From a virus, in UHGV virus genome UHGV-1370141: 64,000 bases of DNA, one strand, 5' to 3'. This document shows, piece by piece, positions 460 through 32,711 of this stretch (positions within the stretch are counted from its first letter, which is position 1; each line of letters starts with the position of its first letter). The position numbers and the translations under genes were made by a program. The notes under the pieces were generated by a model. That model saw only the letters and a list, made by a program, of their open reading frames with translations. It was not told the DNA's origin and searched no databases.

Positions 460-2559
460 TTACTCAATAATCGTTGCTGCGACAGAATTGTCGTACAACG
501 AAGCAGGACGTTTACGTGACGTATAGAAACGTACGTTGTCCAAGTTCTTCTGCTGTCCCTCAAACAACAACATCGGGATTGCAGAACGCATCGCAATCAG
601 TGTATTGTGATCTTCGAAGCGTTTTCCTTCTGCGGCATCGGCATCCTCACTGTCAAACCCTACTGCCGGGAATGGGTTAGTAGGTGACTCAACACGAGAG
701 ATTGCCAACATAATCGCGATGTGCGTCATCGGAATCCCTTTGAGCTTACGTTGGATATATTTGAACACGTAGAACAACGCATGAGTACATTGTTTTTCCG
801 TGGCACCACGCATCTGAACGAGGGTAATCGGTTTAACCTTACCACTCTTCTTGCTCAAACGCATTGACTCGTCCGAGAACTGTTCGAAGTTATCTGACTT
901 GTCCGATGCTACCGAACGTAAAATCAATTCCAACCCTGCTACAAACTCCGCCATAGATTCAGACCGATTCGTATAAATTAGGATCGGCCAGGACGGTTTC
1001 CATCCTTTTAGCGGAACACGCACCGTTTTCTTGCTGGGGAATACGAGCTTATCACGATTCTTCAAGAAGAAGCGAAGGAACGACTTAGAGAAGTTACCGC
1101 AGACGCCCATTCGAACGTCAATCGGATCTTCTGCCAGGATGTTCCCTTCTGCATCTAAACGAACAAACGTAAGGTCATTAATTTCCGGGAGTGCCGTTTC
1201 ATCAATATCGTCCAGGTCTTCATGATACGCAATCTGGCTAATCTCTGAATAGACTTCATCCGAAATTACCAGTTGGTATTCATCCCAGGTACCGTATTGC
1301 GGCTTCTCCAGTAAACTAATCCCTTTAACGGAGTTGTGCTTATACTCCGTGAGATAATCACGCATTCTTGGCGACAAGACCAAGTTCAGCAGATAACGCA
1401 GGAAGTCAAGGTGTTTCGTCGACAGAATACCTTGAGTGCCCTTTTCTGAAATTGCGGTTGACGCAAGGTGACCCGGTGATGTGCCAGGTGACAGGTTATA
1501 AATCAAGTCACCCATACACGTTGCACAGATAGTCTGTCGTGACATCCCTTTGCAACACATCGCGGTACGGAACTCGATAGGTTTGTTCAAGACTTTCTCA
1601 AACTCACCGTCTTCGAATCGTAACCACGGACCACCAGTACCTTCGAAGCGATAACGCATTCCTTTCATCGCTTTGAATTTCGCTTCTTCCAACGGCGAAT
1701 TCGTAAAGGTGTGTCTGTGTACGTGATGTGTACCACAGTCTTCGTAATCGAAGAACATCAGCACGTTAGCCGCTAACTGCAACTTACGCGATGCGTACTC
1801 TGCGTCTGCAATCTTGTCGGTATTATACAGGTGAGAACGCGATGTCGCACCTGCTTCTTTCAGTCGACTGATAACAGAATGCAAGCCGGTGAAGAAACCT
1901 TCCCATACCTGGTTAGAGTACACACGGGAGTCAATCTCTGAAGTCTTACCACGAATGTAAGCCTGGAGAATCTGATCCATTTTCAGTGTGCGGTCTAACA
2001 CAGACATGACAACTGGGTTGTTTGAGAGTCTCGGATCTTTAAAGATTTTCTCAATGAGTTGATAGGCTTCTTCTACCTTATCGTTACCTTCCTCATCGTA
2101 ACCCGTCGGATAGAGTTTAGACCATTCGATAATCAGCTTGAAGTTTTCATGCTGATAAATCTCCATCATCGTATCGTAGTCAATGGTAACACAATACGAC
2201 AACAGGTTTTTCACCGTCAGGTTAAACGCGTTTGCATAAACGTGCTGCGATAACAGGTAACGGGTATCGGCCAGATCCACTCCGGCCTTACGTGCTGCTA
2301 CAGCTGCCAACGACATAAAGCGCAGATGCGCATCGTCAGTTGCCGTGTCGCCATGCTTATACGCCATGTTCGACGAGATTGGCACTTGGGGATAAAACTG
2401 GGTTAATCCCCAATACGGCCAGCTCAACTTAATGTGTCGACCAGACATTCTCAACGTGACCCCATCGTCGAAGGACACGTCGTAAACGCCCCGAAGTAGC
2501 CACACCTGATCCGAATTCAACTTGCACAAGTCTCTTACGTGAACCGGAGTCGCCTTCAT
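460..2559 (-). CDS. multisubunit RNA polymerase beta' subunit, C-terminal fragment (bridge helix + trigger loop region)
   Basis: AAVAARKAGVDLADTRYLL resembles the beta' bridge helix (GARKGLADTALKTA..YLTRRL); AISEKGTQGILSTKHLD resembles the trigger-loop segment SIGEPGTQLTMRTFH. Start overlaps stop of upstream gene (TAATG). Confidence 0.7.
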   Translation of the reverse strand: MKATPVHVRDLCKLNSDQVWLLRGVYDVSFDDGVTLRMSGRHIKLSWPYWGLTQFYPQVPISSNMAYKHGDTATDDAHLRFMSLAAVAARKAGVDLADTRYLLSQHVYANAFNLTVKNLLSYCVTIDYDTMMEIYQHENFKLIIEWSKLYPTGYDEEGNDKVEEAYQLIEKIFKDPRLSNNPVVMSVLDRTLKMDQILQAYIRGKTSEIDSRVYSNQVWEGFFTGLHSVISRLKEAGATSRSHLYNTDKIADAEYASRKLQLAANVLMFFDYEDCGTHHVHRHTFTNSPLEEAKFKAMKGMRYRFEGTGGPWLRFEDGEFEKVLNKPIEFRTAMCCKGMSRQTICATCMGDLIYNLSPGTSPGHLASTAISEKGTQGILSTKHLDFLRYLLNLVLSPRMRDYLTEYKHNSVKGISLLEKPQYGTWDEYQLVISDEVYSEISQIAYHEDLDDIDETALPEINDLTFVRLDAEGNILAEDPIDVRMGVCGNFSKSFLRFFLKNRDKLVFPSKKTVRVPLKGWKPSWPILIYTNRSESMAEFVAGLELILRSVASDKSDNFEQFSDESMRLSKKSGKVKPITLVQMRGATEKQCTHALFYVFKYIQRKLKGIPMTHIAIMLAISRVESPTNPFPAVGFDSEDADAAEGKRFEDHNTLIAMRSAIPMLLFEGQQKNLDNVRFYTSRKRPASLYDNSVAATIIE

Positions 2560-4799
2560 TATTCTTCGCCCCTTTTCATTTTCACCAATTCAAACCCTTC
2601 ACAGCTGTGAATGTTTTTCATCATTCTGTCAATCTGCGAATCTCCTAATGGGAGCTTATTCCGGTCTACCAGTACGCCCGGATTGGAAGGAGTTTGAGAT
2701 CGGTACAGCCCTACTAAAATCTCTCGATGCACAGCAGGGTTATTTGCCCTATCGTGAACCTCTTCGTAGTTACCTGGACCATAACCCGCTAATAGTCGTT
2801 CTTCCGAAGGACCAGCCCATTTCAGCGTTTTATAGTTTACCGGATACGAACCACGTCCTTGGTTAGACGCATCAATCGTGCCCAGGTAGTTCAGGTACAT
2901 CGACGAAATACTTGAGAATTCACGTCCCGTTTTATCAAGCCGTAATGTTTCTACACCACCCACGTAAAACTCGTCTTTTGTCCATTCCTGTTTACCATCG
3001 TAATTGGTAATAAGCAGTTTCGACTTACGGGGTTTAAACTCACCTAAACGTTCACTGATTTCCACCGGAGTGTCATCAAGTTCGTGAGGTAAGTAAATGC
3101 GGATGGTGAAATCGTAAATCTCTTTAAAGAGTTCTCGCTGCAAATCCTCCGTAGGATGCGTAGCCTGTAACGTGTTCGCCCATTCTGGATTATAGCGTGA
3201 AAGGTAGTCCATCAGGATTTCCCAACACTCGCCAATACGCCCTTCATCCAGCATCGGTTTAAGACGCATCTTCAGTTGTTCAGATGCTGCTGACCAATAC
3301 ATGTGGAACAGCGCGGCGTAAGTAGAACGACGAATTACGGCGTTCATTGAACGTAGTACGTGAACACGTTCGCCGAACTCGTTAATTGGCATCTGTTCAA
3401 CTGGCAGTACACGACCCACAATCCCTTTCGTACCCGAACGGTCGGTAATCTTAGAAGACACCGTCACCGGGATCGGATAACGTACCGCGATACGAATTGT
3501 GTACGTGTTGATAGGATCGCTTAATCCACGCTGAACAGGTGAAGTCAGTTTAGAGATAATCTGTTGACTTACGTTCTCTTTACCGTATTCGCCGCGACGA
3601 ATTGCATCTTCAATCACTCCGCGAATTTCTTCACGAAACTCTGCGTAGACTTCGTACGTTTCAGATGCGAAAGCTTTCTCCAGCAACACACACGCTTTGG
3701 GAGACCAGATAACGTTTTTATCTCTCGACACGGAGAAATAGAAGCGAACAATCGCATTGTAGTAGTCCTTTAACGCCAATGCGTATTTGTCAAGCTCACG
3801 TTTGTTCTCTTCAGTACAGTTAATGTTATTCGTTCCATTACCGCATGACGTTTCATCACGCCAAACCTGAATATCAACAATGCGTGTTCCGCTACGTTCC
3901 ATCAGTTCGTGGTTGTTTTCCAAACGTGCTTTATAGTGTATCGGATCGGCATCCACGTAATCACAGTTATCGAAGAACGGAGAAACGTGTTGGGTTTCTC
4001 CTAAGGTTGCATCGATCGCTGCGTACAGGTCATCGAAACGACGAGAAGCGATAACTAACCCGTCATCACGAATCGCTTCACCCACGTCTGGGAAATAGCG
4101 CGGTACACGATTCCCCTCGGGATCGTTATAGCCGTAGGTATCCAGCAAGAATTCATCTTCACGTAAGGTTTTCTCAATAACTTTCAACCCATACCCGTGA
4201 AGCTTCTGTGCCGCTTCTTCGGAAATCGTGTAGGAATCTTCGATAATGTCTGGATGTGAAATGGTAACCGTTGGCAGCACCGCACTGTCTGCGAATTCAC
4301 CATCCACCATGCACGGCATTGTCGTCAGGATTTCATCCTTTTCTAACTGGTCGGTTTCACCACGTAACAAACTGCGCAGTTTTGGCGATTCCCATTTCTC
4401 GGAAGAGAACACGTTATCGTGATTAGTATAAAAGTTAATCTCGATAACATCTATCATTGTTTTGCCCGGAATACGGCATTCTGCACGACGGAAGAATATC
4501 GCGTGTTCCAGCGCACGGGAATCCCCACGACGGCCATAACGGGTAAACGTTGCGCGACGTTGTCTACCTTCCTTAGTTGTGTAATGACAGATGCTCCCAC
4601 TGTCTTCCACAATATCGTTAAACAGAAAATCGTGGTAATTGGTATCTGCTCCCGTAAAGTGAGGTGACGGCTCAGGATGATCAATCGGCACCGAGGACTT
4701 CATATGGTTACCTACCATCGATGCCCTTGCACCTGACACCTGTGCGATATTAACTTCACGGTCAGCGACGCTGCTCAATAGCTCAACTGGCGTTTTCAT
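2559..4799 (-). CDS. multisubunit RNA polymerase beta subunit fragment (catalytic region)
   Basis: TDRSGTKGIVGRVLPVEQMP matches the beta motif NRHGNKGVISKINPIEDMP; YNDPEGNRVP resembles ETPEGPNIGL; translationally coupled to the downstream beta'-C gene. Confidence 0.75.
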   Translation of the reverse strand: MKTPVELLSSVADREVNIAQVSGARASMVGNHMKSSVPIDHPEPSPHFTGADTNYHDFLFNDIVEDSGSICHYTTKEGRQRRATFTRYGRRGDSRALEHAIFFRRAECRIPGKTMIDVIEINFYTNHDNVFSSEKWESPKLRSLLRGETDQLEKDEILTTMPCMVDGEFADSAVLPTVTISHPDIIEDSYTISEEAAQKLHGYGLKVIEKTLREDEFLLDTYGYNDPEGNRVPRYFPDVGEAIRDDGLVIASRRFDDLYAAIDATLGETQHVSPFFDNCDYVDADPIHYKARLENNHELMERSGTRIVDIQVWRDETSCGNGTNNINCTEENKRELDKYALALKDYYNAIVRFYFSVSRDKNVIWSPKACVLLEKAFASETYEVYAEFREEIRGVIEDAIRRGEYGKENVSQQIISKLTSPVQRGLSDPINTYTIRIAVRYPIPVTVSSKITDRSGTKGIVGRVLPVEQMPINEFGERVHVLRSMNAVIRRSTYAALFHMYWSAASEQLKMRLKPMLDEGRIGECWEILMDYLSRYNPEWANTLQATHPTEDLQRELFKEIYDFTIRIYLPHELDDTPVEISERLGEFKPRKSKLLITNYDGKQEWTKDEFYVGGVETLRLDKTGREFSSISSMYLNYLGTIDASNQGRGSYPVNYKTLKWAGPSEERLLAGYGPGNYEEVHDRANNPAVHREILVGLYRSQTPSNPGVLVDRNKLPLGDSQIDRMMKNIHSCEGFELVKMKRGEE

Positions 4800-14738: not shown

Positions 14739-15088
14739 CTGTTTGTCCACTCCATTCCTTTTGGAGCAGGTGTGCAATGACACCCTCCCATGTTTTCACA
14801 TGGGCACAGACTATATCATAACCGTAGGTATTGCTACCCGTAGGTCTCCCCCACTTCGCCGCTAAACTAAGCAGCTACTCTACTCGGTTTTACCCTTTCG
14901 ATAGTCGTTGAACGATTTTCATCGCTGCTGGTTATCCATTATCACAACCCTTAGCATTATTGGTTAGCATAGGCTATCTTACGAATTGTTTCTGACTTTC
15001 GCCACCCTGTCGGGATCGTAAGCTTTAGGAGTTTCCAGCAATTCGAGGGATACGCACTAGAGGTTTCCCGTCTAGTGGGCCAAATTTT
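14739..15088 (-). ncRNA. group I self-splicing intron (ORF-less, about 350 nt) interrupting the RNAP beta'-like gene
   Basis: Separates ...KAPNA from DFDGDQ...; 5' exon ends in U, intron ends in G; contains P-like ACGGGAAAC, Q-like AUCCCGACAG, R-like GUUCAACGACUA and S-like GAUAUAGUCU elements with complementary GACUA/UAGUC (P7). Confidence 0.8.
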
Positions 15089-16456
15089 AGCATTCGGAGC
15101 TTTGATGACGCGATCGGAGATACGTAACGAACACTGTGTAACATCAGGGTTAACAGCTGAGATAAATAATGTCTGAATAGACAACTGTACAAGCGTCGGG
15201 TTTCGTAGCGCTGATATCATCAGGCCGTAACCGCCACGAGACTCCTTAATAAGTTCGTTGATAATTTCATGAACCAACGGTACGTACTGCATTGATGCAA
15301 ATGCAATAACACGTTCACACTGCCGTGGTGTGAAGTTCCGTCGACCGAGTTTGTTTTCAATAGCTACAGATTCTAACGTCACTAGCCAACGCCAAGGTGC
15401 AATAACCTTCATAGCGTCATGCGGTTCTGAGATTGGAGAGATTGTTACACGACCACCCCACGGGATGTGTGTTGAACCTAACTTGGCACGATAGAATCCA
15501 GGTTTACCTTCCATCACCTCCTGACGATGGTCAATATAGAAGTACGCTAACTGGCGATTTGCTTTTAATGCGCGACTAATAATGAAATGGGTTGGGATGC
15601 GTCGTGCATTAGTATAAAGTAACGCGATGTTCTTAACCGCGTCTATTGCACCGGTATAAACAGGATCGATAAAGATACCCTGACGTCGTTCCTCCGTAAC
15701 GATCAGTTTGGGTGAAATGATTGGAAGATGAACCGGAAAGAAAGTGTGTGATTGTTCTTCGAAGAACTTTTTCCACTCTAAGCGAGTACGTTCGCTCTCA
15801 TATCGGTTATTTTTCGTTGGTGGATAAATTTCTTTCCAGACTTCAGGAGAAGTTAAGATATTGAATATTGTTCGATGGTGGTCAATAAAATTCCTAATGC
15901 CGCGTGGAACTTGATACTCGCTAAAGATACGTTTGATTATTCGGGATCGAGTACCTTCGTCTTTATCAGGTTTATAGCACGGATCTAACATCCACATCAA
16001 TAAATCAGAACCACGTTCTACGGTCACTTTGTTTCGGTTAAACTTCTTAAGTTTAGAACCGAAGAAAGCGTTAAACATCGACCAGAATCGTGGGTTAATA
16101 AAGTTGCCTATTTCCTCCGGGGCACGAATCCAGACTTCTGAAACAATACGATGTTCTGTCACTACATAGCCGCAGGTAGGACATCGCATACCGAGATTAT
16201 ATCGATGAACGATAGGTGCTTCACAATCAATACTACAAATGGGTGCCGAATTTAGCGTCTCGTCGACTGTCCGGTTCTGTAAGATTCGGTTAATCAACTC
16301 TGACGTCTCAATGGTGTCTTTATATTTCGCAACATCATTGATAATCATCGGCGGTTTATAGCCCTTTTCCTCCGCCTCTTTGAAAGCGTCACGTAACATT
16401 TTATCGTGACTGATTAATCGCCCTGATACACCGAAGTATTGTAATCTGTCTTTCAC
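15089..16456 (-). CDS. RNA polymerase beta' N-terminal-like subunit, exon 1
   Basis: GFYRAKLGSTHIPWGGRVTISPI resembles [32 protein letters not shown] resembles NRAPTLHRLGIQ; Cys cluster CPTCGY near the N-terminus; exon ends ...RVIKAPNA immediately before the catalytic motif. Confidence 0.75.
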
Positions 16457-18504: not shown

Positions 18505-18530
18505 ATCACATAGATAATATCATTCTCAGA
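18505..18530 (-). promoter_or_regulatory. promoter-like motif copy 2 upstream of the 612-aa gene
   Basis: Coding strand CTGAGAATGATATTATCTATGTGATG; second tandem copy in the divergent intergenic region. Confidence 0.4.
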
Positions 18531-19773: not shown

Positions 19774-22071
19774 TTACTCCTCATCGAATGTTTCTTCTTC
19801 ATCTTCCTCCTCATCATCCTCACCTGCCCTTTCTGATTTCTTGACATACTGTACTTCCGCAAGCTCTTTATACAATCCTTCGTCTTCAGCGGTTTTATCG
19901 TAGAAATCCGACAGTAAACGCATACGGTTTTTATCCATCATGAACACACCTAAGCATTCAAGGATGTGATAGTACGGTTCTACGGTGGAGAACGCCGTGC
20001 GACGAATGTCCGCAATTTCGATCAATTCTTTAGGAATACCGTAGTTCTCTACTAAGTGCTCTGGCAGAATCAACGTTTTGTATTTACGGAAATTGTTTTC
20101 CTCAAACCACGCGGTTGCACCGTTTCGGATAATCGGATCTTCGATGCTGTCCAACCACTCTTTAATCTTGGTTTTGTTTTCTAAAACCACCGGTAGTTTT
20201 ACAGCGTCGTAAGGCGGTTCTTCCAAATGGCCAAACTTCGGACCAAAGATGGCGTTGTACATTCGATGATAGTGATAGTTTTTCTCGTCCTTCTCGTTAT
20301 AAGCGCTACGTTCCTTAATGTTCGTTGTTTTCAGATAGCCCGGATTACCCGAACGAATGGAATCCATAATGGTGTGTTCAATCTGCGCAACCTTTTCCAG
20401 TAACGGAATGATTTCAATCTGGTCACCACGTGCGACGACTTCACACAGTCCTTTAATAGTATTCTTAAACTCCTTCATGATAATCGGTGGAATGTTCGAG
20501 GTACGTAAAGACACCCCTTTTACTTCCAGCTCGGGATCTTTTTTCAACTGACCTTCCTGACCGGTAATCAGTGAGAAGTAGTGTTTTGCTTTAGTCGTTA
20601 ATGCAAACGAATCGAACTTAAATTCGTTCTTCATCGCGTACAAGAACAGACGTTCTTTCGCTACACCGATATTCGCAGACATACTCGCCATCAGGTGACG
20701 GAGGTGTTGCGTTGCAATATAAATCATTGCATTGGATACACGAGTTGCTTCTTCACCGTAATGCTTACCAGTATACCAAACCGCCCACCATTGTGCAGTC
20801 ATCATTGTAGAGTCGGTATCTGAAACCACACCTACCCGACGAACCACATCCGGCATTCTTGCGATATTAATCGGTAAGTTTTTAGTGGTCAGGATATTGC
20901 GAATTAAAAGTGCGTACTTACCGATGGTTTTCTGTAAGAACAGTGCGGAACGAATCAGCTCCTTATAGTCGTCCTGCTGATCCCACGGTAATGGCTTTTT
21001 CTTATCGTCGAGTTTCTTAACGTGGCTGAACGCTTTGCCCATCGGCACCACGTCAGTACGGAACTGGGAGATGATGATCTGCATGTCACCATCAATGGTT
21101 TTTTCCGCAGCATCCCAGTCTTCGACTTCGTCAATCATCTCACGAGAAATCAACGCGGTAATAAAACCACGCATGAACTGATCGTTGTACTTCGCAAGAT
21201 GATAAAAATCACCCATGTAAACAAATGCCGCGCGAGTGAGCGGAGAAACATTTGATACATAGTGCTCAACAAACTCCATCCCCTCTTCGTTCTTGAAATA
21301 AAAGTCCGCAGAGTAATGAATCACGTCCATCACTTCTTCTACGGTCGGATAATGAAGCTCGTACGTATCCATACATTTCTTGAAGCTATTCCAATCGGTT
21401 AACGTGCCGATGGACAAGAAATGATCGATGATACGTGACGGTGTGTCGTAATGACGATTACCGCCTAATAAACGTTCGTTACCTGCGTTACCGAATGAGG
21501 TTGCAGTACGGCAGGTTGATGTTAAAACAGAGTGTGAAGACTGGTTAAAGATGATCGTGTACGGAGAAGAGAATGCGCCCGACATCCCGTTGTTCAGAGT
21601 CTTGACTGCGTTCTGTTCATTCTTTTTGTTAATCTGTAAAACTCTATTACCTGCTGCTTCGGCAGCAAACATCTCTTTTTTCACCGCTGCACGTTTAGCT
21701 ACGTTAGCGGCAGTGAATTCTGATAGCTTGGAACGTTTGATGTGTTCTGGGATATAAAACGTTAACGACGGTGCGGAGATAATCTGTTTATCGATTACGG
21801 TTTTAAACAGTTTATCAACAGTTGTGTATTTCTCTTCACGGTCTCCTGTTTTCTGATTACGCACCCACATCTTACACAGCGGTGATTCGGTTGATAACTC
21901 ACCGCCAGGTGCCAACATCTCGTCAACTTCTTTACGACATAATTCCAAAGGGTATTTTTGTGCGGTTACGTTGTGAATGTATAGCGCAACCTGTTCACGA
22001 TAAGCATCGTTAATATCGATATCACGATGGTACTCGTCTACCGATAAACGAAAAGGAGAATTGTATTCCAC
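19774..22071 (-). CDS. DNA polymerase-like protein (family B-like palm motifs), acidic C-terminal tail
   Basis: VGVVSDTDSTMM resembles motif C (YGDTDS); KAKHYFS about 55 aa later resembles the KxY motif; EVKGVSLRTSNIPP resembles KIMGLETQKSSTP of T4-family polymerases; ends ERAGEDDEEEDEEETFDEE. Motifs A/B and exonuclease motifs not recognised. Confidence 0.4.
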   Translation of the reverse strand: MEYNSPFRLSVDEYHRDIDINDAYREQVALYIHNVTAQKYPLELCRKEVDEMLAPGGELSTESPLCKMWVRNQKTGDREEKYTTVDKLFKTVIDKQIISAPSLTFYIPEHIKRSKLSEFTAANVAKRAAVKKEMFAAEAAGNRVLQINKKNEQNAVKTLNNGMSGAFSSPYTIIFNQSSHSVLTSTCRTATSFGNAGNERLLGGNRHYDTPSRIIDHFLSIGTLTDWNSFKKCMDTYELHYPTVEEVMDVIHYSADFYFKNEEGMEFVEHYVSNVSPLTRAAFVYMGDFYHLAKYNDQFMRGFITALISREMIDEVEDWDAAEKTIDGDMQIIISQFRTDVVPMGKAFSHVKKLDDKKKPLPWDQQDDYKELIRSALFLQKTIGKYALLIRNILTTKNLPINIARMPDVVRRVGVVSDTDSTMMTAQWWAVWYTGKHYGEEATRVSNAMIYIATQHLRHLMASMSANIGVAKERLFLYAMKNEFKFDSFALTTKAKHYFSLITGQEGQLKKDPELEVKGVSLRTSNIPPIIMKEFKNTIKGLCEVVARGDQIEIIPLLEKVAQIEHTIMDSIRSGNPGYLKTTNIKERSAYNEKDEKNYHYHRMYNAIFGPKFGHLEEPPYDAVKLPVVLENKTKIKEWLDSIEDPIIRNGATAWFEENNFRKYKTLILPEHLVENYGIPKELIEIADIRRTAFSTVEPYYHILECLGVFMMDKNRMRLLSDFYDKTAEDEGLYKELAEVQYVKKSERAGEDDEEEDEEETFDEE

Positions 22072-22124
22072 GGCTGTCCCCGAAAAAGGCAGTTTAACTC
22101 GGCTATAAGGATGGCAGGTAACGT

Positions 22125-22166
22125 GAAAAAAGAAAAAAAAAATAAACCCTCTCCGAAGAGAGGGTC
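22125..22166 (-). terminator. rho-independent terminator
   Basis: Hairpin accctctc-cgaa-gagagggt followed on minus strand by a long T-run, downstream of the 22173..22586 gene. Confidence 0.6.
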
Positions 22167-22172
22167 TTAACT

Positions 22173-22586
22173 TTAACCGGCTTCGTTTTCAATGATTTCG
22201 ATTTCGACGTCATTGAATCCGCGTGCGTTGAGCGCTGCTACCAGATCGTCTTTTTCTTGTTTGTTGTCCAACTGAACCACAAACCGTGCAGTGAGGCTTT
22301 TCACCACACGAACTTCACGTACCCACGCATCCGCAGTGACGCCGATGCGGTTACTGGAGTCCTTAAACAACATGTAGTTGTACGCGGTCAAATCGTTAAC
22401 CGGTTGTCCAACCAAAGACGAGTAAATGTTTTTCTGGATAGCGGCTAAATCTTCACCTGAGTTTTTAGCGAGCTCATAACCCACCTTTGACGCGAGTACA
22501 CGGACTCGCGTTTCGTTACCACGTAACGGGGTATCGTAAACGATGTTTACAATTGAACCCGGTTCGATGTTACTGAAGTCGTACAT
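22173..22586 (-). CDS. hypothetical protein (last gene of a 9-gene array)
   Basis: 137-aa ORF. Confidence 0.5.
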   Translation of the reverse strand: MYDFSNIEPGSIVNIVYDTPLRGNETRVRVLASKVGYELAKNSGEDLAAIQKNIYSSLVGQPVNDLTAYNYMLFKDSSNRIGVTADAWVREVRVVKSLTARFVVQLDNKQEKDDLVAALNARGFNDVEIEIIENEAG

Positions 22587-22589
22587 TTT

Positions 22590-23192
22590 TCACCCTTTCA
22601 TTTTAATCAAGAATGTAAATGACAAGAACAAACTACCCTGACCATAACCCGGATTATAGACTTTAATAGCAAGTTCCAGTCCAGAGACTTTTCCCTTATG
22701 CGCTGTACGAAACAGTTCTAAAGCAGGTCGACATTTCTCGTCAAACATTCTGACCAGCTCCTCACGAAACGTCTCAACAGCGTGCTCACGAAGAACATCC
22801 CAAGAGGAATCGCCTTGCAATTTACAGAACTCGTAAATTTCCAAAAGTGGTTTCATGTCATCGAGAACTGCGTCTGTATAACAGGTCTCCATCATTGACA
22901 TGAAATTCCACTGTCGATATTCCTTATTCAACCCTTTTAGGTATTTATCGAGTTTGGCTAACTCATTCTTGTTACCAGGAAACTTAATCGTACCGGAACG
23001 CTCGTTCAAGCATTTGTTGAAAATGCGCGTGACGTCATCGGGATTTTCAATATCCGTAGGTAATGAAATCGTTAGCTGGTCAAACAAATTCATCGATTTT
23101 ATCAGTAACTCTTTATAGAAGTCACCGCCGGAAACATATTCCAGTAAACCTAAATTCGGCTGAACAAAGTGATCGCCACGCACTTTATACAT
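22590..23192 (-). CDS. hypothetical protein
   Basis: 200-aa ORF; 3-nt spacing to next gene. Confidence 0.5.
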   Translation of the reverse strand: MYKVRGDHFVQPNLGLLEYVSGGDFYKELLIKSMNLFDQLTISLPTDIENPDDVTRIFNKCLNERSGTIKFPGNKNELAKLDKYLKGLNKEYRQWNFMSMMETCYTDAVLDDMKPLLEIYEFCKLQGDSSWDVLREHAVETFREELVRMFDEKCRPALELFRTAHKGKVSGLELAIKVYNPGYGQGSLFLSFTFLIKMKG

Positions 23193-23624
23193 TCAAACCT
23201 CTACTCGAATAAAACCTTTTCCCATCTCTTTCATAAACAAAGAGACTCTCGACCTTTTTGATCCTTCCTCTGCGGTATAGCCGCTTTCTCGCCACAAACT
23301 CTCCACCAACAAACGTATACGATGGTAGTCGATGCCTTTATCAATCTCTTCCCACATTAAAGAATGCGAAAAGATAATAACCTCATCTTCAGGATACATT
23401 TGTGACAACTGGGTGAGAATAAAATAGCGGTTGGGCGGGATGAACGTCAAAAACGTTTCACCCTCGCCCATCCGTTTAACGATAGAGCGTACCGATTCCT
23501 CAGCATACTTCGCCAGAAACAGATACGCCAAATCAGGTTTCACTTTACATTGATCCGCCATTTTAACTCGCGAAAGCAGTTGGTCCCGAAAGAACACTTC
23601 CGAAACTTCCATATAGAGTATCAT
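23193..23624 (-). CDS. hypothetical protein
   Basis: 143-aa ORF; true start may be an internal Met (M22, about 23561) because the track start overlaps the upstream gene by about 60 nt. Confidence 0.45.
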   Translation of the reverse strand: MILYMEVSEVFFRDQLLSRVKMADQCKVKPDLAYLFLAKYAEESVRSIVKRMGEGETFLTFIPPNRYFILTQLSQMYPEDEVIIFSHSLMWEEIDKGIDYHRIRLLVESLWRESGYTAEEGSKRSRVSLFMKEMGKGFIRVEV

Positions 23625-24069
23625 AACAGATAATCACCAATTCGCTAAAAGACTCACCTGACCAGTTTTCTAACTGACCTGGGAACATAGAGTTAATAAG
23701 TCCGGCTAACCCTGTTTGTGTTTCCAATTCACGAATGAGAATATCGGCAGCGGTTCCGATTGCGAGAATATGTTGGTCCTCAGTACCCTGCGTGGAAAGG
23801 AAGCTAATACTTTCTACCGTAGTACCTGGGATGGTATTCTCATCATACGCAACGGACATCACCATTTCTTTAAACAGTTCAGGATTACGGCTTTTCACAC
23901 CGATAATGTACGCAGTTGCAAAGTCCTCATAGAGTCGACGTATATCGTACTCTGATACGGACAACCTGCTTGTTTCGAGAACCTGCACTAAAACTTCGCG
24001 CACGGCGTCGTAGAACTTCAACCTGCCGTAATCAAGTACATGTTGTGCTACGTGAAAGTAGTATCTCAT
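23563..24069 (-). CDS. hypothetical protein
   Basis: 168-aa ORF; start abuts stop of the upstream gene. Confidence 0.5.
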   Translation of the reverse strand: MRYYFHVAQHVLDYGRLKFYDAVREVLVQVLETSRLSVSEYDIRRLYEDFATAYIIGVKSRNPELFKEMVMSVAYDENTIPGTTVESISFLSTQGTEDQHILAIGTAADILIRELETQTGLAGLINSMFPGQLENWSGESFSELVIICYDTLYGSFGSVLSGPTAFAS

Positions 24070-24578
24070 TAGAGCATCTTCCCTGCCAAGTTACCGAGCA
24101 ATAACTCAACAACGCTGAGGAGTCCAACCGACATCGTTTGAATAGCCTCAGGGTTCTCGAATTCGGGGTATTTTACCTGTTCGTAACGAACCAGAAACTC
24201 CACAGCACCAGGCTTATTGGTACAATAACGCGCACCTACCCATGTACCAAAACGGGTGAACCAATGCGGGTGACTAGAGACCGCGAGTAAGTACGCTTTG
24301 GCCACATCTTGAACGGCTTTCACATAAGTGAGCGCTCTTTCACCCTCAATGATATACCCCTGGGCATTTAACTCGCGAGAGATAAATTCAATGGTACCCT
24401 GTATCGCAAAACGATCCAGCTTAGGAAACTCCCCAGTTATTCCATACTGAATCGCATAGTTTAACACTTCGTTAAGATCGGTATTGATTTCTCGCAATAT
24501 CGAGTTGGGATCGAATTCGGTTAATGGACCACAAATGAATTGATAGTCCGGGATAATAAAGTAGCTCTCACGCACCAT
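24069..24578 (-). CDS. hypothetical protein
   Basis: 169-aa ORF, overlapping neighbours by a few nt. Confidence 0.5.
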   Translation of the reverse strand: MVRESYFIIPDYQFICGPLTEFDPNSILREINTDLNEVLNYAIQYGITGEFPKLDRFAIQGTIEFISRELNAQGYIIEGERALTYVKAVQDVAKAYLLAVSSHPHWFTRFGTWVGARYCTNKPGAVEFLVRYEQVKYPEFENPEAIQTMSVGLLSVVELLLGNLAGKML

Positions 24579-24972
24579 AAATCACTCCTGTAGTATACAT
24601 TCGCCATACACCACCACCTACATGAAACAGAAGAAAATCTGATTTCGGTAAGAATGGGACTTCTTCCTCTAAGCGTGCCCATAACGACTTAGAGGCTAAC
24701 AGCTCGGTTTCAATAACATGATTAAGGCAGTAACTGTTCGGTTTCTCCAACTCAACGATGGGATACCGCTTCATTATATCTAAGAACAACTCTTGAACTG
24801 TCCGCTTATCGATTTGGAACTTCCGTCGCATCACTTCCAGTCTTACTAACTGTTCGACATAATAGTCCACAGTATCCGCCACATCGAGGTACTGAAGAAA
24901 CGCTGTCCGTTTAACTACTTTTAGAATCTCTGCGGTTGTCCACGGAAACTCAATAAAGATCGTCATAGGCAT
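24568..24972 (-). CDS. hypothetical protein
   Basis: 134-aa ORF. Confidence 0.5.
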   Translation of the reverse strand: MPMTIFIEFPWTTAEILKVVKRTAFLQYLDVADTVDYYVEQLVRLEVMRRKFQIDKRTVQELFLDIMKRYPIVELEKPNSYCLNHVIETELLASKSLWARLEEEVPFLPKSDFLLFHVGGGVWRMYTTGVIYGA

Positions 24973-25384
24973 CAGTTACCTTCTTTGGAATAAATCGGAG
25001 GAAGTGTCCGTCTAAACGAAAGTAGAAACGCCAGCCGCGTGGAGGAATGCCCATTTCCTCGCACAACGCGTTTCGTACATAACTCGTTATCAAACGAACA
25101 TCTTCTTCCGTTGATTTCGGTCTAAACGACCTGACTATCGTGGTCACACAATGAGTATCCCATAAACCGGTCTCTGTAAAGTTCGGTATGAGATACTCAA
25201 GTAATGACAGAATCACGTACTTCAGTTGTTCCGCATCTGTACCAGAATACGACGACAACCTATCGTCCGCGAGTATGCGTTGGTACGCTTTATACGTCAC
25301 GTGTTCGAGTAGGGTGATTCGGATCGTATCTTTTTTCTGGGAAACAGTTGCGGTAGTGGACAAATCGGATATCTTCTCCAACAC
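24950..25384 (-). CDS. hypothetical protein
   Basis: 144-aa ORF. Confidence 0.5.
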   Translation of the reverse strand: MLEKISDLSTTATVSQKKDTIRITLLEHVTYKAYQRILADDRLSSYSGTDAEQLKYVILSLLEYLIPNFTETGLWDTHCVTTIVRSFRPKSTEEDVRLITSYVRNALCEEMGIPPRGWRFYFRLDGHFLRFIPKKVTDAYDDLY

Positions 25385-25919
25385 GAAGCTCCATCATTGC
25401 AATCTGGCCACGTGGTGTTAAGTGGGGTTCTATCTCAACCGTAAGGTAAGGATTAAACGGTTGGTTTACCGCCTCGAACCCTTGCTTTACTAATTGCTCA
25501 ACCTCACACAACAACACATCGTAACAATCATCAAAAGCCAATCCCAATAGATACGACTTTGGACGTAAAACACAAACTTCACGCTGTTCAAACCCTACGG
25601 GTGTTTCGCCAAACACGGTCTGTTCAATACGTAACCGACGCGTTTGGATCGTTTTCGGTGGGCTCATTTTGCCACTGTTCACCAGAAGGTTCGTCAATAC
25701 AAAAGAATCTGTGTAGTCTTCTAAAAAGTCCGGTAATCGTGTATTAGGCATTCGCGGAATAGAATAAAAAATGTCCTCCAATGCAGTGTGTATCAGTTGT
25801 ACAGTAACGGCCTGTTTCTCCTTTACGGTCATCCGCAAAGCGGGAGCGTAGGTTGTTTCTTCCACCGCTGCCCAGAAGTTATGATAAACTGTAGCTGGAT
25901 TGAAGTGTATTTTGACCAC
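25290..25919 (-). CDS. hypothetical protein
   Basis: 209-aa ORF; N-terminus overlaps the upstream ORF, true start possibly internal. Confidence 0.45.
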   Translation of the reverse strand: MVKIHFNPATVYHNFWAAVEETTYAPALRMTVKEKQAVTVQLIHTALEDIFYSIPRMPNTRLPDFLEDYTDSFVLTNLLVNSGKMSPPKTIQTRRLRIEQTVFGETPVGFEQREVCVLRPKSYLLGLAFDDCYDVLLCEVEQLVKQGFEAVNQPFNPYLTVEIEPHLTPRGQIAMMELRVGEDIRFVHYRNCFPEKRYDPNHPTRTRDV

Positions 25920-26152
25920 GTTTGCACAACTCCGTTTTTGTAAGAAAATGGACTGGAATGGTCACGACCTAAAGCACCAATCATAAACCAAGCGTCCGAA
26001 CCAAAATATCTTTCTGCAATCTTTAAGCAATCGCTGGGTAGGTTGTGTATCCCAGGATAAATCAGTTCCTGCATCGCTGTTAGAATTTCCTCAGGACGAT
26101 AGCGAACTGAATGGCTAGAGTCTGGCAGAAAACCAAAAAGTACGCGCGACAT
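25829..26152 (-). CDS. hypothetical protein (first gene of the 9-gene array)
   Basis: Track ORF 25829..26227 trimmed to the ATG at 26152 (M26), which is preceded by AAAGGAG; promoter motif further upstream. Confidence 0.5.
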   Translation of the reverse strand: MSRVLFGFLPDSSHSVRYRPEEILTAMQELIYPGIHNLPSDCLKIAERYFGSDAWFMIGALGRDHSSPFSYKNGVVQTWSKYTSIQLQFIITSGQRWKKQPTLPLCG

Positions 26153-26179
26153 TAACTTTAAATACTCCTTTAAGGGAAC

Positions 26180-26203
26180 ATCACAGAGATAATATCTATA
26201 CGA
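26180..26203 (-). promoter_or_regulatory. recurrent promoter-like motif (coding strand CGTATAGATATTATCTCTGTGATG)
   Basis: About 30 nt upstream of the SD of the first gene of the small-gene array. Approximate. Confidence 0.4.
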
Positions 26204-26318: not shown

Positions 26319-27131
26319 ATGAGTGTCATCGACTACTGTCTACGGAGAATACGTCGAGAGATTCCAGAACCGATTCTTCGCGCTGCGTTTGTACCCAAAA
26401 ATCTTCGCTATTACGGTGTTGCGTCTTCCTTAGATAACGAGATTACTGAAAAGGTATTTAAAGAATACCTTATCCCAGAAGTTTCCCGTCTAGGTCAATA
26501 CACCGAAATCGACCTCCAAGGTTTACCTTTTGAGAACGACACCCAGGATTACTACTCACGTATCTATTACCTGGATGACATTAAGACCGGGGGTAGACCG
26601 ATACTGGACGTCCACATTGCCGTAACGCCGGTGGCAGGGCAAGCGTACACCTTACCCCCAGCAGGATCTTATTTAGACGGGGCAACTTCAGGGGTGCTGG
26701 CCTCCACGCAACAAGTAGTGGATAGTCAATCTGCAATGCCGCGTATCTCCTCACCCGAAGTTAAGAAACTTGGGCCGAACACCATCAAAATCAAAGACCC
26801 AGGAATGTTCGTCTACGCAACTAAGCTTCAAGTTAAGTTTGCAATGTCTGATGACTTAAACGAAATCAAACCGGCCTTCTATCCGGTAGTTGCAGATATG
26901 GCACTGTACGCCACTAAGCAGGTCATCTACAACAAAATGATTTTCGATATGGATTCAGGTCATCTTGAAAACGGTATGGAGTTCGGGGCGTTTAAAAACG
27001 TTATCGAAGGCTATTCCGACGCCGGGGAAATGTTCAACGACAACCTACCACGCCTACAGCGTGCGATGGTTCACAACGACGACGCAGGCAACCGTTACAA
27101 CTACATGTCTGGCGGTCGTTTCAAATCTTAA
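26319..27131 (+). CDS. hypothetical protein
   Basis: 270-aa plus-strand ORF followed by a bidirectional terminator. Confidence 0.55.
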   Translation: MSVIDYCLRRIRREIPEPILRAAFVPKNLRYYGVASSLDNEITEKVFKEYLIPEVSRLGQYTEIDLQGLPFENDTQDYYSRIYYLDDIKTGGRPILDVHIAVTPVAGQAYTLPPAGSYLDGATSGVLASTQQVVDSQSAMPRISSPEVKKLGPNTIKIKDPGMFVYATKLQVKFAMSDDLNEIKPAFYPVVADMALYATKQVIYNKMIFDMDSGHLENGMEFGAFKNVIEGYSDAGEMFNDNLPRLQRAMVHNDDAGNRYNYMSGGRFKS

Positions 27132-29894: not shown

Positions 29895-30042
29895 TAACGT
29901 AAGTCCGAACTTAATCGGTAGGTGTTTACACGTTTTTAAGGAGCTTTCTACCCGTGAGCAAGAGCAGAAGTTATCAGAACAACCGACGCTCAGTTGAAGG
30001 CTGACGAGTTTGTAACTCTTGTTCGATTGCTCTAATCTGGGC

Positions 30043-30115
30043 GACCAATGGCAGGATTCGAACCTGCGAAATAACCGATTATTAGTCGGGTGTTAATTCC
30101 TCTAACTTCAATGGT
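30043..30115 (-). tRNA. tRNA-like element (about 73 nt; anticodon uncertain, possibly pseudo-tRNA)
   Basis: Perfect T-arm GCAGG-TTCGAAT-CCTGC, 7-bp acceptor stem with one mismatch, anticodon-like stem-loop CCGA-CTAATAA-TCGG; D-arm weak and no encoded CCA. Hand-folded only. Confidence 0.4.
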
Positions 30116-30124
30116 CTAAATCCA

Positions 30125-30969: not shown

Positions 30970-31619
30970 ATTAAAATCTCCTGCCGTGGTTTGTGTCACA
31001 CCAACAGGAAACTCTGTAAAAAATAATTCAGCTGCGTACCGGCGTTTCTCAACGGGAGTACGCACCCCTCTCGTCTTTGCGAGCCGTCAAGCTAGAGGAC
31101 ATCACACTGCCAGCGCTACCTGGAGCAGGGTTGTTTCGACGCAACGTCGTAATTCGGATTCTGGCCGCACCTCTGGGAGCGCATCCCACCGTCGGCTGCC
31201 CGCAGGTAAGTTCTACGGACCTCTCGCCAACGTCGCCCCCAGAGGCTGCCACGGTTCACTCGGATTTTCTCATGTCGGCCACGCGTCGCTGATAGCGCGG
31301 CTTCCCCCAAACTTCGTAAGTCGCGGGAACGGTACCGAGCACCTGAATTCGTGGGGTTTACCAACCCCTGAGGTTTTTATCCGAAGTCACGGAAACCCCA
31401 TAGTAAAACAAACCGCCAGTGTTAGGCCGAACGTTTTGTTTTTCCCAGCACACGGTGAACTAAAATCCATGCACTTGAAAAAACACCCCTGGCCAATAAC
31501 CAACCAGGGGGTTCGAGCTCTGCTGAATCATCGCAGACAGTAATCGTGTTGAGCTGTGAGCAGTAATACCTGAACTCCGAAAAATCTTCGTGGTTGTAAA
31601 TCAACCCCACGCAAATCCT

Positions 31620-31857
31620 CCGAACATACCATAGGGTTTTAACGTTCGGAAAAGGGGAATGGGGGTTTACCCCTTGGGTCAGGTGTTCAGGATCTCCCCG
31701 GAAGGGTAACCCCTACCCGATCCCCCAGGTGGGGATTTTACCCTGGCGAATTACCCCGGGTACGATTTTCGGTTTTTCCGGAAAATACCGCTCACCGATC
31801 CCCACCCCCTCACCGGGGGTCAGAGCGAGATCAGATCTCATAATAAGGATCGCGCGC
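31620..31857. repeat. G-tract / C-tract rich structured flank of the AT-rich core
   Basis: Runs such as ggggaatgggggtttacccc, ccccggaagggtaacccctacccgatcccccaggtgggg, ccccaccccctcaccggggg; non-coding. Confidence 0.4.
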
Positions 31858-32270
31858 GTTTTATATATATTTATATATAATATATATTATATATAATAAT
31901 TATATTATTAATATATTTATTTAATATATTTATATTTATTAAAATAAATATATATTAAAATATATAATTAAATAATACCAAAAGGTATTATTATTTTGAT
32001 CCTAAAGGAATAATATATTTATAAATAAATATATTATACTATACGTGTGCGCACGCACACGCGTATAAGGAAGAGATCTTGAGATCAGGTTTTTGAGAGA
32101 GTTAAATTTTTAAGATCGATCCGAGAGACTTGAGGTCTCTCGAGAGTATTTAAAAAACCAAGCAAGATAACTACTCAACTTGAATCTTCAGTGTGTGAAG
32201 ATTCAAAACGTTGATCCAATCACTTGATCCGTTAGTACGCGAAGCGTGAATGTTTTTTTGATCGGCACGG
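31825..32270. promoter_or_regulatory. GATC-dense, palindrome-rich region around the AT core (candidate replication origin / DNA unwinding element)
   Basis: About 11 GATC sites in about 440 bp (expected 1-2), including agatcagatct, agatcttgagatcag, agatcgatcc; palindromes cgagagac-ttgag-gtctctcg and gaatcttca-gtgtg-tgaagattc. Confidence 0.4.
31858..32045. repeat. about 185-bp almost pure A/T tract (TATA/TAAT-rich) bounded by alternating GC elements
   Basis: tttatatatatttatatataatatatattatatataat... bounded by gatcgcgcgcg on the left and gtgtgcgcacgcacacgcg on the right; extreme compositional outlier in a ~48% GC genome. Confidence 0.8.
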
Positions 32271-32659
32271 CGGCTGGCCGTCGGGTGGCAGGGTCGGGTC
32301 TCACCCACCCCCGGCAAGGGGTCGTACGCTTTCTCAATCGCTCCACATCGCGCTAAACGGGGTCAGGTAACCCAAGTGTACTGGGTAGGGGTAAAAACCG
32401 CGTTAAAATCGTTTCTAGAGCGTTTTACGAAATCCGGTTAAAAAATCACCAACCGGATAGGGTTTCCAGAGACAATCCAGCACCCGGTTTTGGGGTTTGT
32501 TGCGGTTTGGGTTAAAATAAATTCTTCGACAGGGAATAAAACCCCGTCAAATTCTTCCTGAGAAGCTCTCTAACGAGAAAAACTCACCCAGGGTATACGA
32601 ACGTACCACCTCGACCTAAAAATGCGTTAGAATCGCTCTGAGGAGGTCGAAGTTTTTTT

Positions 32660-32711
32660 GGCAAAAAAAAAATAAAAAAAAACAGGTGGCCGAAGCCACC
32701 CGATATTTTTT
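32660..32711. terminator. bidirectional rho-independent terminator
   Basis: Hairpin ggtggc-cgaa-gccacc flanked by an about 20-nt A-run and an 8-nt T-run; immediately downstream of the 32712 gene on the minus strand. Confidence 0.6.

Follow-up and report, generated by a model that had tools for sequence, protein, structure and literature searches.

The subject of this report is a unit of nine tightly packed small genes in a 64,000-nucleotide (nt) stretch (the window) of the virus genome UHGV-1370141; the genes are numbered here from g9, the first behind the promoter, to g1, the last. On its sequence the window phage is a nucleus-forming jumbo phage (Chimalliviridae) of the SPN3US-like clade, and we lean towards the view that the unit is an early core operon serving nucleus-based replication and not an accessory host-takeover array. 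Nucleus-forming phages must control the entry of proteins into their protein-walled nucleus. Do the nine genes serve such core functions? Or are they host-takeover, anti-defence or regulatory genes, as the first-pass annotation had proposed? The early-type phage promoter and the fast evolution of g2-g5 suit that proposal, whereas the invariant gene order, the position within a core block and the presence of an SH3DP gene at the end of the array do not.

The unit, its boundaries and its immediate neighbours are as follows.

26319-27131, plus strand: DUF7484 gene, equivalent to phiKZ gp42 (PF24302, E = 1e-96)
26179-26199, minus strand: promoter motif, ATAGATATTATC followed by tctGTGA, 36 nt upstream of the g9 ATG
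25829-26152, minus strand: g9, 107 amino acids (aa), ATG start with AAGGAG ahead, isoelectric point (pI) 9.0
25290-25919, minus strand: g8, 209 aa, GTG start, 91-nt overlap with g9
24950-25384, minus strand: g7, 144 aa, GTG start with GGAG 5 nt ahead, 95-nt overlap with g8
24568-24972, minus strand: g6, 134 aa
24069-24578, minus strand: g5, 169 aa, acidic
23563-24069, minus strand: g4, 168 aa, acidic
23193-23624, minus strand: g3, 143 aa, 62-nt overlap with g4
22590-23192, minus strand: g2, 200 aa
22173-22586, minus strand: g1, 137 aa, SH3DP protein
22130-22167, minus strand: intrinsic terminator, GACCCTCTC-UUCG-GAGAGGGUU and a U run
19774-22071, minus strand: PolB, divergent family-B DNA polymerase (PF20286 divDNApol, E = 1e-284)

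The unit lies inside a core block made up of DUF7484/gp42, SH3DP/gp49, PolB/gp50, gp52, chimallin and nvRNAP, which is the most conserved block of chimalliviruses. PolB is equivalent to phiKZ gp50 and SPN3US gp18 and is 80% identical to the SPN3US polymerase; downstream of it follow a gp52-like gene, chimallin and nvRNAP beta' (matches to phrog_3938, phrog_8316 and phrog_2987). The window chimallin is 54% identical to SPN3US gp244, the named chimallin homologue (PMC9365700). With the polymerase as anchor, 79 IMG/VR loci were fetched, and the layout of DUF7484 on the opposite strand, small-gene cassette, SH3DP and PolB was found in 71 chimallivirus loci. The DUF7484 gene is divergently transcribed and faces away from the cassette in all 71 loci that have it. 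The cassette spans 3.7-4.6 kb in most of these, up to 8.6 kb in a minority, and holds 7-9 small genes in most clades. In several other clades (among loci L043-L092) tandem paralogues of 125-175 aa stand just upstream of SH3DP (clusters 12, 16, 17 and 40; hhalign 95-97%), and the phiKZ-like loci L069 and L075 each have two adjacent gp48/Imp4-like copies; the cassette therefore grows partly by duplication.

All nine open reading frames (ORFs) were confirmed on the minus strand, overlapping or abutting, and the 22173-26152 interval has a coding density of 99.9%. From g9 to g1 the successive junctions are overlaps of 91, 95, 23, 11, 1 and 62 nt, then an abutting TGAATG, then a 3-nt gap, and most of the nine starts are preceded by a Shine-Dalgarno-like purine run. 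The products have no transmembrane segments and pI values of 4.6-6.3, except for the basic g9. Distant homologues conserve the first 30 residues of g8, which are modelled at pLDDT 88-95, and the g7 N-terminus, M(L)EKISD..DTVRxTLIDHV, is conserved across genera, unlike the g8 tail that it overlaps. Because these N-termini are conserved, and that of g8 is also confidently modelled, the long starts of g8 and g7 are real. It follows that the g9/g8, g8/g7 and g4/g3 overlaps (25829-25919, 91 nt; 25290-25384, 95 nt; 23563-23624, 62 nt) genuinely code in two frames, both of which are protein-conserved across genera. Public annotations of relatives often choose shorter downstream ATG starts, so that these long overlaps are missed.

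Do related genomes bear out the nine genes as coding? A lack of conservation or coding signal there had been named beforehand as the result that would count against them; all nine are conserved, with non-synonymous divergence (pN) far below synonymous divergence (pS). Measured against the relative L016, whose PolB is 92% identical to that of the window in aa sequence, pN is 0.06-0.33 and pS 0.38-0.84, which indicates that all nine are under purifying selection. The lower synonymous divergence of g9 and g8 fits the dual-coding overlaps. Each of the nine has a PHROG match, in families of unknown function, with E from about 1e-36 to 1e-77. Their order and orientation are identical in SPAsTU, pEa_SNUABM_29, SPN3US, Caitlin, phiEaH2, Wellington, Machina, CR5 and Phobos, and the order is thus kept across at least five genera of SPN3US-like jumbo phages, the counterparts being SPN3US gp9-gp17. 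Seoulvirus, Erskinevirus, Wellingtonvirus, Machinavirus and Derbicusvirus have one-to-one orthologues of these, all annotated 'hypothetical protein', and share the promoter motif, terminator and overlapping junctions of the window unit. They differ from it in that the window proteins are only 21-55% aa identical to those of SPN3US, and that Derbicusvirus carries 2-3 additional genes between SH3DP and PolB. The best nucleotide match of the window lineage is 74% over 335 nt, and by this measure the window is a distinct lineage of the clade; the IMG/VR contig L014 is near-identical to it (polymerase 99% identical). L016-type relatives (proteins P0088-P0102), the nearest to this phage group, occur as ~225 kb contigs in over 100 assemblies of Salmonella, Shigella and E. 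coli isolates, which suggests that cultures often carry such jumbo phages.

The promoter motif, noted at first reading near 26190, is an exact ATAGATATTATC at 26188-26199 on the minus strand. All relatives keep it ahead of their first gene: across the SPN3US-clade loci CATAGATATTATCT is almost invariant upstream of the first cassette gene while the flanks drift. In the window the motif has 18 matches at two or fewer mismatches against 3.8 expected, and no shuffle reached 18. Intergenic copies followed by YYNGTGA lie ahead of chimallin, the gp52-like gene, RNA polymerase beta (2559-4799) and three other genes; a promoter scan found no sigma-70-like site at the 5' end of the unit. According to a review of jumbo-phage RNA polymerases, the early promoters, used by the virion enzyme, are AT-rich motifs of ~10 nt that recur before early operons, whereas bioinformatics cannot locate the middle and late ones (PMC7598289). 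In phiKZ, chmA is transcribed by the virion RNA polymerase (PMC12571901), and the chimallin and nvRNAP genes are early and depend on that enzyme (PMC12571901, PMC7598289). ATAGATATTATC agrees with this description, being an AT-rich ~10-nt motif that recurs upstream of operons including those of chimallin, RNA polymerase beta and the cassette. Since the same motif precedes the chimallin and RNA polymerase genes, the ATAGATATTATC promoter is probably of the early, virion-RNA-polymerase class. The early promoters of phiKZ and AR9 are likewise short, AT-rich, highly conserved and placed before operons that include nvRNAP and the nuclear shell; the consensus here, ATAGATATTATC-YYNGTGA, is clade-specific. 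The motif is in part a palindrome, and the two strands carry copies of it that overlap at 18510-18524, between chimallin (minus strand) and the gp52-like gene (plus strand), and at 26185-26199, between g9 (minus) and DUF7484 (plus). These pairs may be bidirectional promoter sites.

At the other end of the unit, the strong terminator noted at first reading near 22150 is a UUCG hairpin, GACCCUCUC-UUCG-GAGAGGGUU, with a 10-bp GC-rich stem in the terminator scan and a U run; it begins 6 nt past the g1 stop and folds at -15.6 kcal/mol (RNAfold). A hairpin and T run occupy the same position in 13 diverse loci, including those of 201phi2-1 and phiKZ. RNAalifold on 11 of the 13 gave compensatory changes in 8/9 stem pairs and an invariant UUCG loop. 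With a conserved motif at one end and a conserved hairpin at the other, the reading of the array as one compact promoter-to-terminator unit behind a phage-specific promoter holds. Between terminator and PolB start lies TTCACG-N14-CCTTATAGCCGAG (22098-22127, minus strand), conserved across SPN3US-like genera and unique in the window. PolB therefore has its own leader, with no early-type motif; candidates for the role of the element are a promoter specific to PolB, a leader and a translational operator.

The first-pass annotation had found no recognisable function in any of the nine genes, and for g1 this does not stand. It matches Pfam PF20287 SH3DP over the whole model (positions 1-122 of 122, E = 8e-29), scoring 100.2 bits where the cut-off is 25, and has counterparts in phiKZ gp49, 201phi2-1 gp81 and SPN3US gp17; its homologues are confined to the SPN3US-like clade, pVa-21-like phages and Pseudomonas phages. 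Pfam describes SH3DP as an 'SH3 fold domain associated with phage DNA polymerases', a possible polymerase subunit proposed on neighbourhood grounds (Iyer et al., PMC7824862). The SH3DP gene adjoins PolB in 89/89 chimallivirus loci. In the window g1 is directly upstream of the PolB ORF, whose start is 101 nt downstream, so that it resembles the family found with divDNApol (PF20286) both in its whole-model match and in its position. Knock-down of phiKZ gp49 strongly reduces plaques (PMC12571901). From family and position, g1 is most likely an accessory subunit or partner of the divergent family-B DNA polymerase.

For the eight other genes the most instructive comparison is with the phiKZ operon in the same slot, after the divergent DUF7484/gp42 and before PolB/gp50, gp52, chimallin and nvRNAP. 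The phiKZ layout is gp42, then an unannotated 142-aa ORF with gp43, 44, 44.1, 45, 46, 47 and 48, then gp49 and gp50. That operon (gp43-gp49) is likewise ~4 kb long with 7-9 small genes and a homologous last gene (SH3DP). It also has an AT-rich motif ahead, related to that of chmA, and a hairpin terminator after the SH3DP gene; TTAGATCTATATCA stands before the operon and before gp53, and the closely related GAGATTTATATTAC before chmA. The two operons differ in promoter sequence, in gene number and sizes (a 357-aa gp43 there, g8 of 209 aa and g7 of 144 aa here), and in the other eight genes, which lack detectable sequence homology. To our knowledge the import adaptors Imp2, Imp4 and Imp5 have been reported only for Pseudomonas phages. 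Two phiKZ cassette genes, imp2 (orf47) and imp4 (orf48), encode adaptors that each serve the import of specific cargo into the phage nucleus (bioRxiv 10.1101/2024.03.27.586873); these functions have been shown for phiKZ only. The slot just upstream of SH3DP-PolB is common to g2-g9 and to Imp2/Imp4. Transposon-insertion sequencing of phiKZ gave zero insertions in 042, 043, 047, 048 and 049, and 044-046 tolerate insertions (data PMC12676376). Core functions fit better than anti-defence because 43, 47, 48 and the flanking 49 tolerate no insertions in the laboratory host.

Relative to L016, the flanking genes are 95% (DUF7484) and 92% (PolB) aa identical, and the genes of the unit fall from 90% for g9, 87% for g7, 86% for g1, 78% for g6 and 75% for g8 to 68% for g5, 66% for g4, 65% for g3 and 51% for g2. 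The fastest, g2-g5, adjoin the SH3DP gene and evolve several-fold faster than their neighbours, as would suit interaction or arms-race proteins. At the slow end, g9, equivalent to SPN3US gp9, matches phrog_9874 (E = 4e-42; pN 0.06 against pS 0.38), g7 matches phrog_8134 (E = 1e-43; 0.07 against 0.62) and g6 matches phrog_9510 (E = 2e-41; 0.15 against 0.65). Among the faster genes, g5 matches phrog_8024 (E = 7e-67) and is conserved out to the Vibrio phage pVa-21 clade, its homologues being confined to SPN3US-like and pVa-21-like phages. The match of g4 is to phrog_8126 (E = 3e-39), and in its alignment the window phage and its closest relative lack a ~40-aa central insert found in all other genera, those of the SPN3US type included; g3 has a full-length match to phrog_9694 (E = 2e-40). 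The fastest-evolving gene of the unit, g2, matches phrog_8007 (E = 3e-36), has a pN of 0.33 against L016 and is represented by only 5 clusters among 5.8 billion proteins, and g8 by 17 representatives among 1.84 billion. Pfam and NCBIfam searches gave no matches for g2-g9, and with g4, g5 and g8 as queries, profile searches of the PDB sequences came back empty. The label 'DUF4719' given to a g5 homologue in one source was not reproduced by a Pfam scan of g5.

Remote homology and structure prediction, which had been suggested as a check, identified g1 and placed the folds of g8 and g5 in other jumbo phages, and gave no function from sequence for g2-g9. The g8 model (AlphaFold) is alpha+beta with pLDDT 90.2. 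Against viral models Foldseek returned the family of g8 itself, pVa21_200, several 150-200 aa proteins of the jumbo phiKZ-like phages FBKp24, Eowyn, pTD1 and RisingSun (probability ~1.0), and a 358-aa protein (0.99) whose length is close to that of phiKZ gp43 (357 aa). The RisingSun match has the length of gp19, the second cassette gene upstream of SH3DP gp24 and PolB gp25. For g5 the model is a compact alpha/beta domain (AF2 pLDDT 87.4, pTM 0.85) that matched its own family, pVa21_202 and Mortimer (probability 0.97). It also weakly matched 201phi2-1 B3FK54 (gp79, Imp2 family; 0.18) and B3FK53 (gp78; 0.10), and two Noxifer proteins that agree in length with cassette genes gp38 and gp41. The clustering of these weak matches in cassette genes is suggestive. 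Neither model had an informative PDB neighbour, and matches came only from other jumbo phages, some of them to cassette genes.

What, then, would an accessory array predict, in which small early proteins inhibit host processes or defence and are dispensable for basic replication? Several features agree with it: the early-type promoter, the small, mostly acidic, soluble products, the absence of homologues beyond one phage clade, the 51-68% identity of g2-g5 where PolB has 92%, and the insertions that phiKZ tolerates in gp44-46 of its equivalent cassette. In phages, the gene content of accessory early regions is usually variable. Here every genus examined has all nine genes in one and the same order, the array lies within a core block and ends with a polymerase-associated SH3DP gene, and phiKZ 43, 47, 48 and 49 are essential in the standard laboratory host (PMC12676376). 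None of the nine matches a known anti-defence or takeover protein in Pfam or NCBIfam, which is weak evidence. On balance we consider the accessory array unlikely. Slightly less likely still is that the eight proteins and SH3DP are missing replisome parts (clamp, loader, primase-helper or SSB-like) co-located with PolB. The cassette lies right beside SH3DP and PolB in the 71 loci, group-1 jumbo phages are without a recognisable sliding clamp (PMC7824862), and translational coupling suggests fixed product ratios. A conserved terminator, however, separates the operon from PolB, which is preceded by a conserved leader of its own without an early motif; the PDB profile searches with g4, g5 and g8 gave nothing, the evolutionary rate is much above that of PolB, and those two phiKZ cassette genes that have been characterised serve protein import, not synthesis. 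That the genes encode virion or ejected proteins beside core genes is very improbable, despite a weak PHROG match of g4 to a 'virion structural protein' family (E = 2.5e-4) and the mass-spectrometry detection noted in the 201phi2-1 record for gp73 (the gp42 homologue) and gp81 (SH3DP). The early-type promoter is one common to non-virion genes, that record has no mass-spectrometry note for any of 201phi2-1 gp74-gp80, and SPN3US gp8-gp18 are absent from the main text of the SPN3US virion-proteome paper and from those of its supplements that were searched.

The early core operon has points against it as well. Similarity between g2-g9 and phiKZ gp43-gp48 was not significant by hmmsearch, iterated hidden Markov models (HMMs) or hhalign, so the SPN3US-clade and phiKZ cassettes could be non-homologous replacements. 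Homology of window proteins to Imp2/Imp4 by hmmsearch had E of 0.06 or worse; the best hhalign link, a weak one, was g4 with the phiKZ gp48/Imp4-like family (probability 20-29%, E about 1e-3), g5 with the gp47 (Imp2) family gave 0.1%, and g8 or its pVa-21-clade relatives with the gp43 family gave 5-23%. The iterated HMMs reach no further than the pVa-21 clade, and for g8 and g5 only. The structural links to the Imp2 family are also weak (Foldseek probability 0.1-0.2), and several of the BFVD matches were identified by protein length and accession order only. The early timing of the unit, though strongly inferred, comes from the shared motif; the SH3DP-polymerase interaction in the literature itself derives from gene neighbourhood (PMC7824862); and we found no localisation or interaction data for SPN3US gp9-gp16 homologues in the literature.

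As an early core operon the unit would work as follows. The injected virion RNA polymerase would start just downstream of ATAGATATTATC (26188-26199), at the promoter type that chimallin and nvRNAP share, and transcription would end at the UUCG hairpin (22130-22167), the nine cistrons being packed for coupled translation. The g1 product would act as a PolB subunit or partner. The genes g2-g9 would fill a lineage-specific cassette that every chimallivirus keeps between DUF7484 (gp42) and SH3DP-PolB, and would encode non-virion early factors that help to set up replication inside the phage nucleus. At least some of the fast-evolving g2-g5 would be cargo-specific adaptors or licensing factors, and g8 would belong to a more widely conserved structural family. 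The role of the eight proteins is thus most likely in nucleus-based replication, possibly as import adaptors, as judged from position, timing, the phiKZ precedent and weak structural hints. A bolder and doubtful extension is that the cassette is a universal, fast-evolving 'import-licensing' module in which g2-g9 are diverged counterparts of phiKZ gp43, Imp2 and Imp4. As each lineage adjusted the set of host and phage proteins admitted to its nucleus, the sequences of these counterparts would have become unrecognisable; the proteins would be made early and in fixed ratios through coupled translation and the dual-coding overlaps.

Three further features of the window were noted outside the unit. 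At 14787-15099 on the minus strand, at the 3' end of the nvRNAP beta' ORF (14957-16456), there is a group I intron (Rfam RF00028, 63.7 bits). In phiKZ the HNH gene gp56 and gp56.1 follow gp55 at the same place, and the RNA polymerase gene is therefore probably intron-split here too. The interval 31545-32710 (1.17 kb), where the fall of the cumulative GC skew comes to a halt, has no ORF of at least 110 aa and contains a ~190-nt block of almost pure A/T (31860-32040) flanked by GCGCGCG and GTGTGCGCACGCACACGCG. A replication origin is one possible reading of this interval, and the region of the genome ends is another. A single tRNA-Ile (anticodon AAT) at 30040-30116, minus strand, was found by ARAGORN and Rfam, and relatives have clusters of 5-9 tRNAs there.

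For the SPN3US-like clade of Salmonella and Erwinia phages the analysis gives a promoter consensus, a terminator, corrected gene starts and long dual-coding overlaps; should the genes be ordinary accessory ones, its practical value would be limited to this better annotation. It places an uncharacterised, conserved nine-gene operon in the Imp slot, behind an early-type promoter like that of the shell gene, and provides a short list of candidate genes for a clade with a genetic system (SPN3US amber mutants). If the import-licensing idea were true, every chimallivirus would possess equivalents of the Imp adaptors, so far regarded as confined to Pseudomonas phages, and SPN3US genetics would offer a way to find their cargoes.

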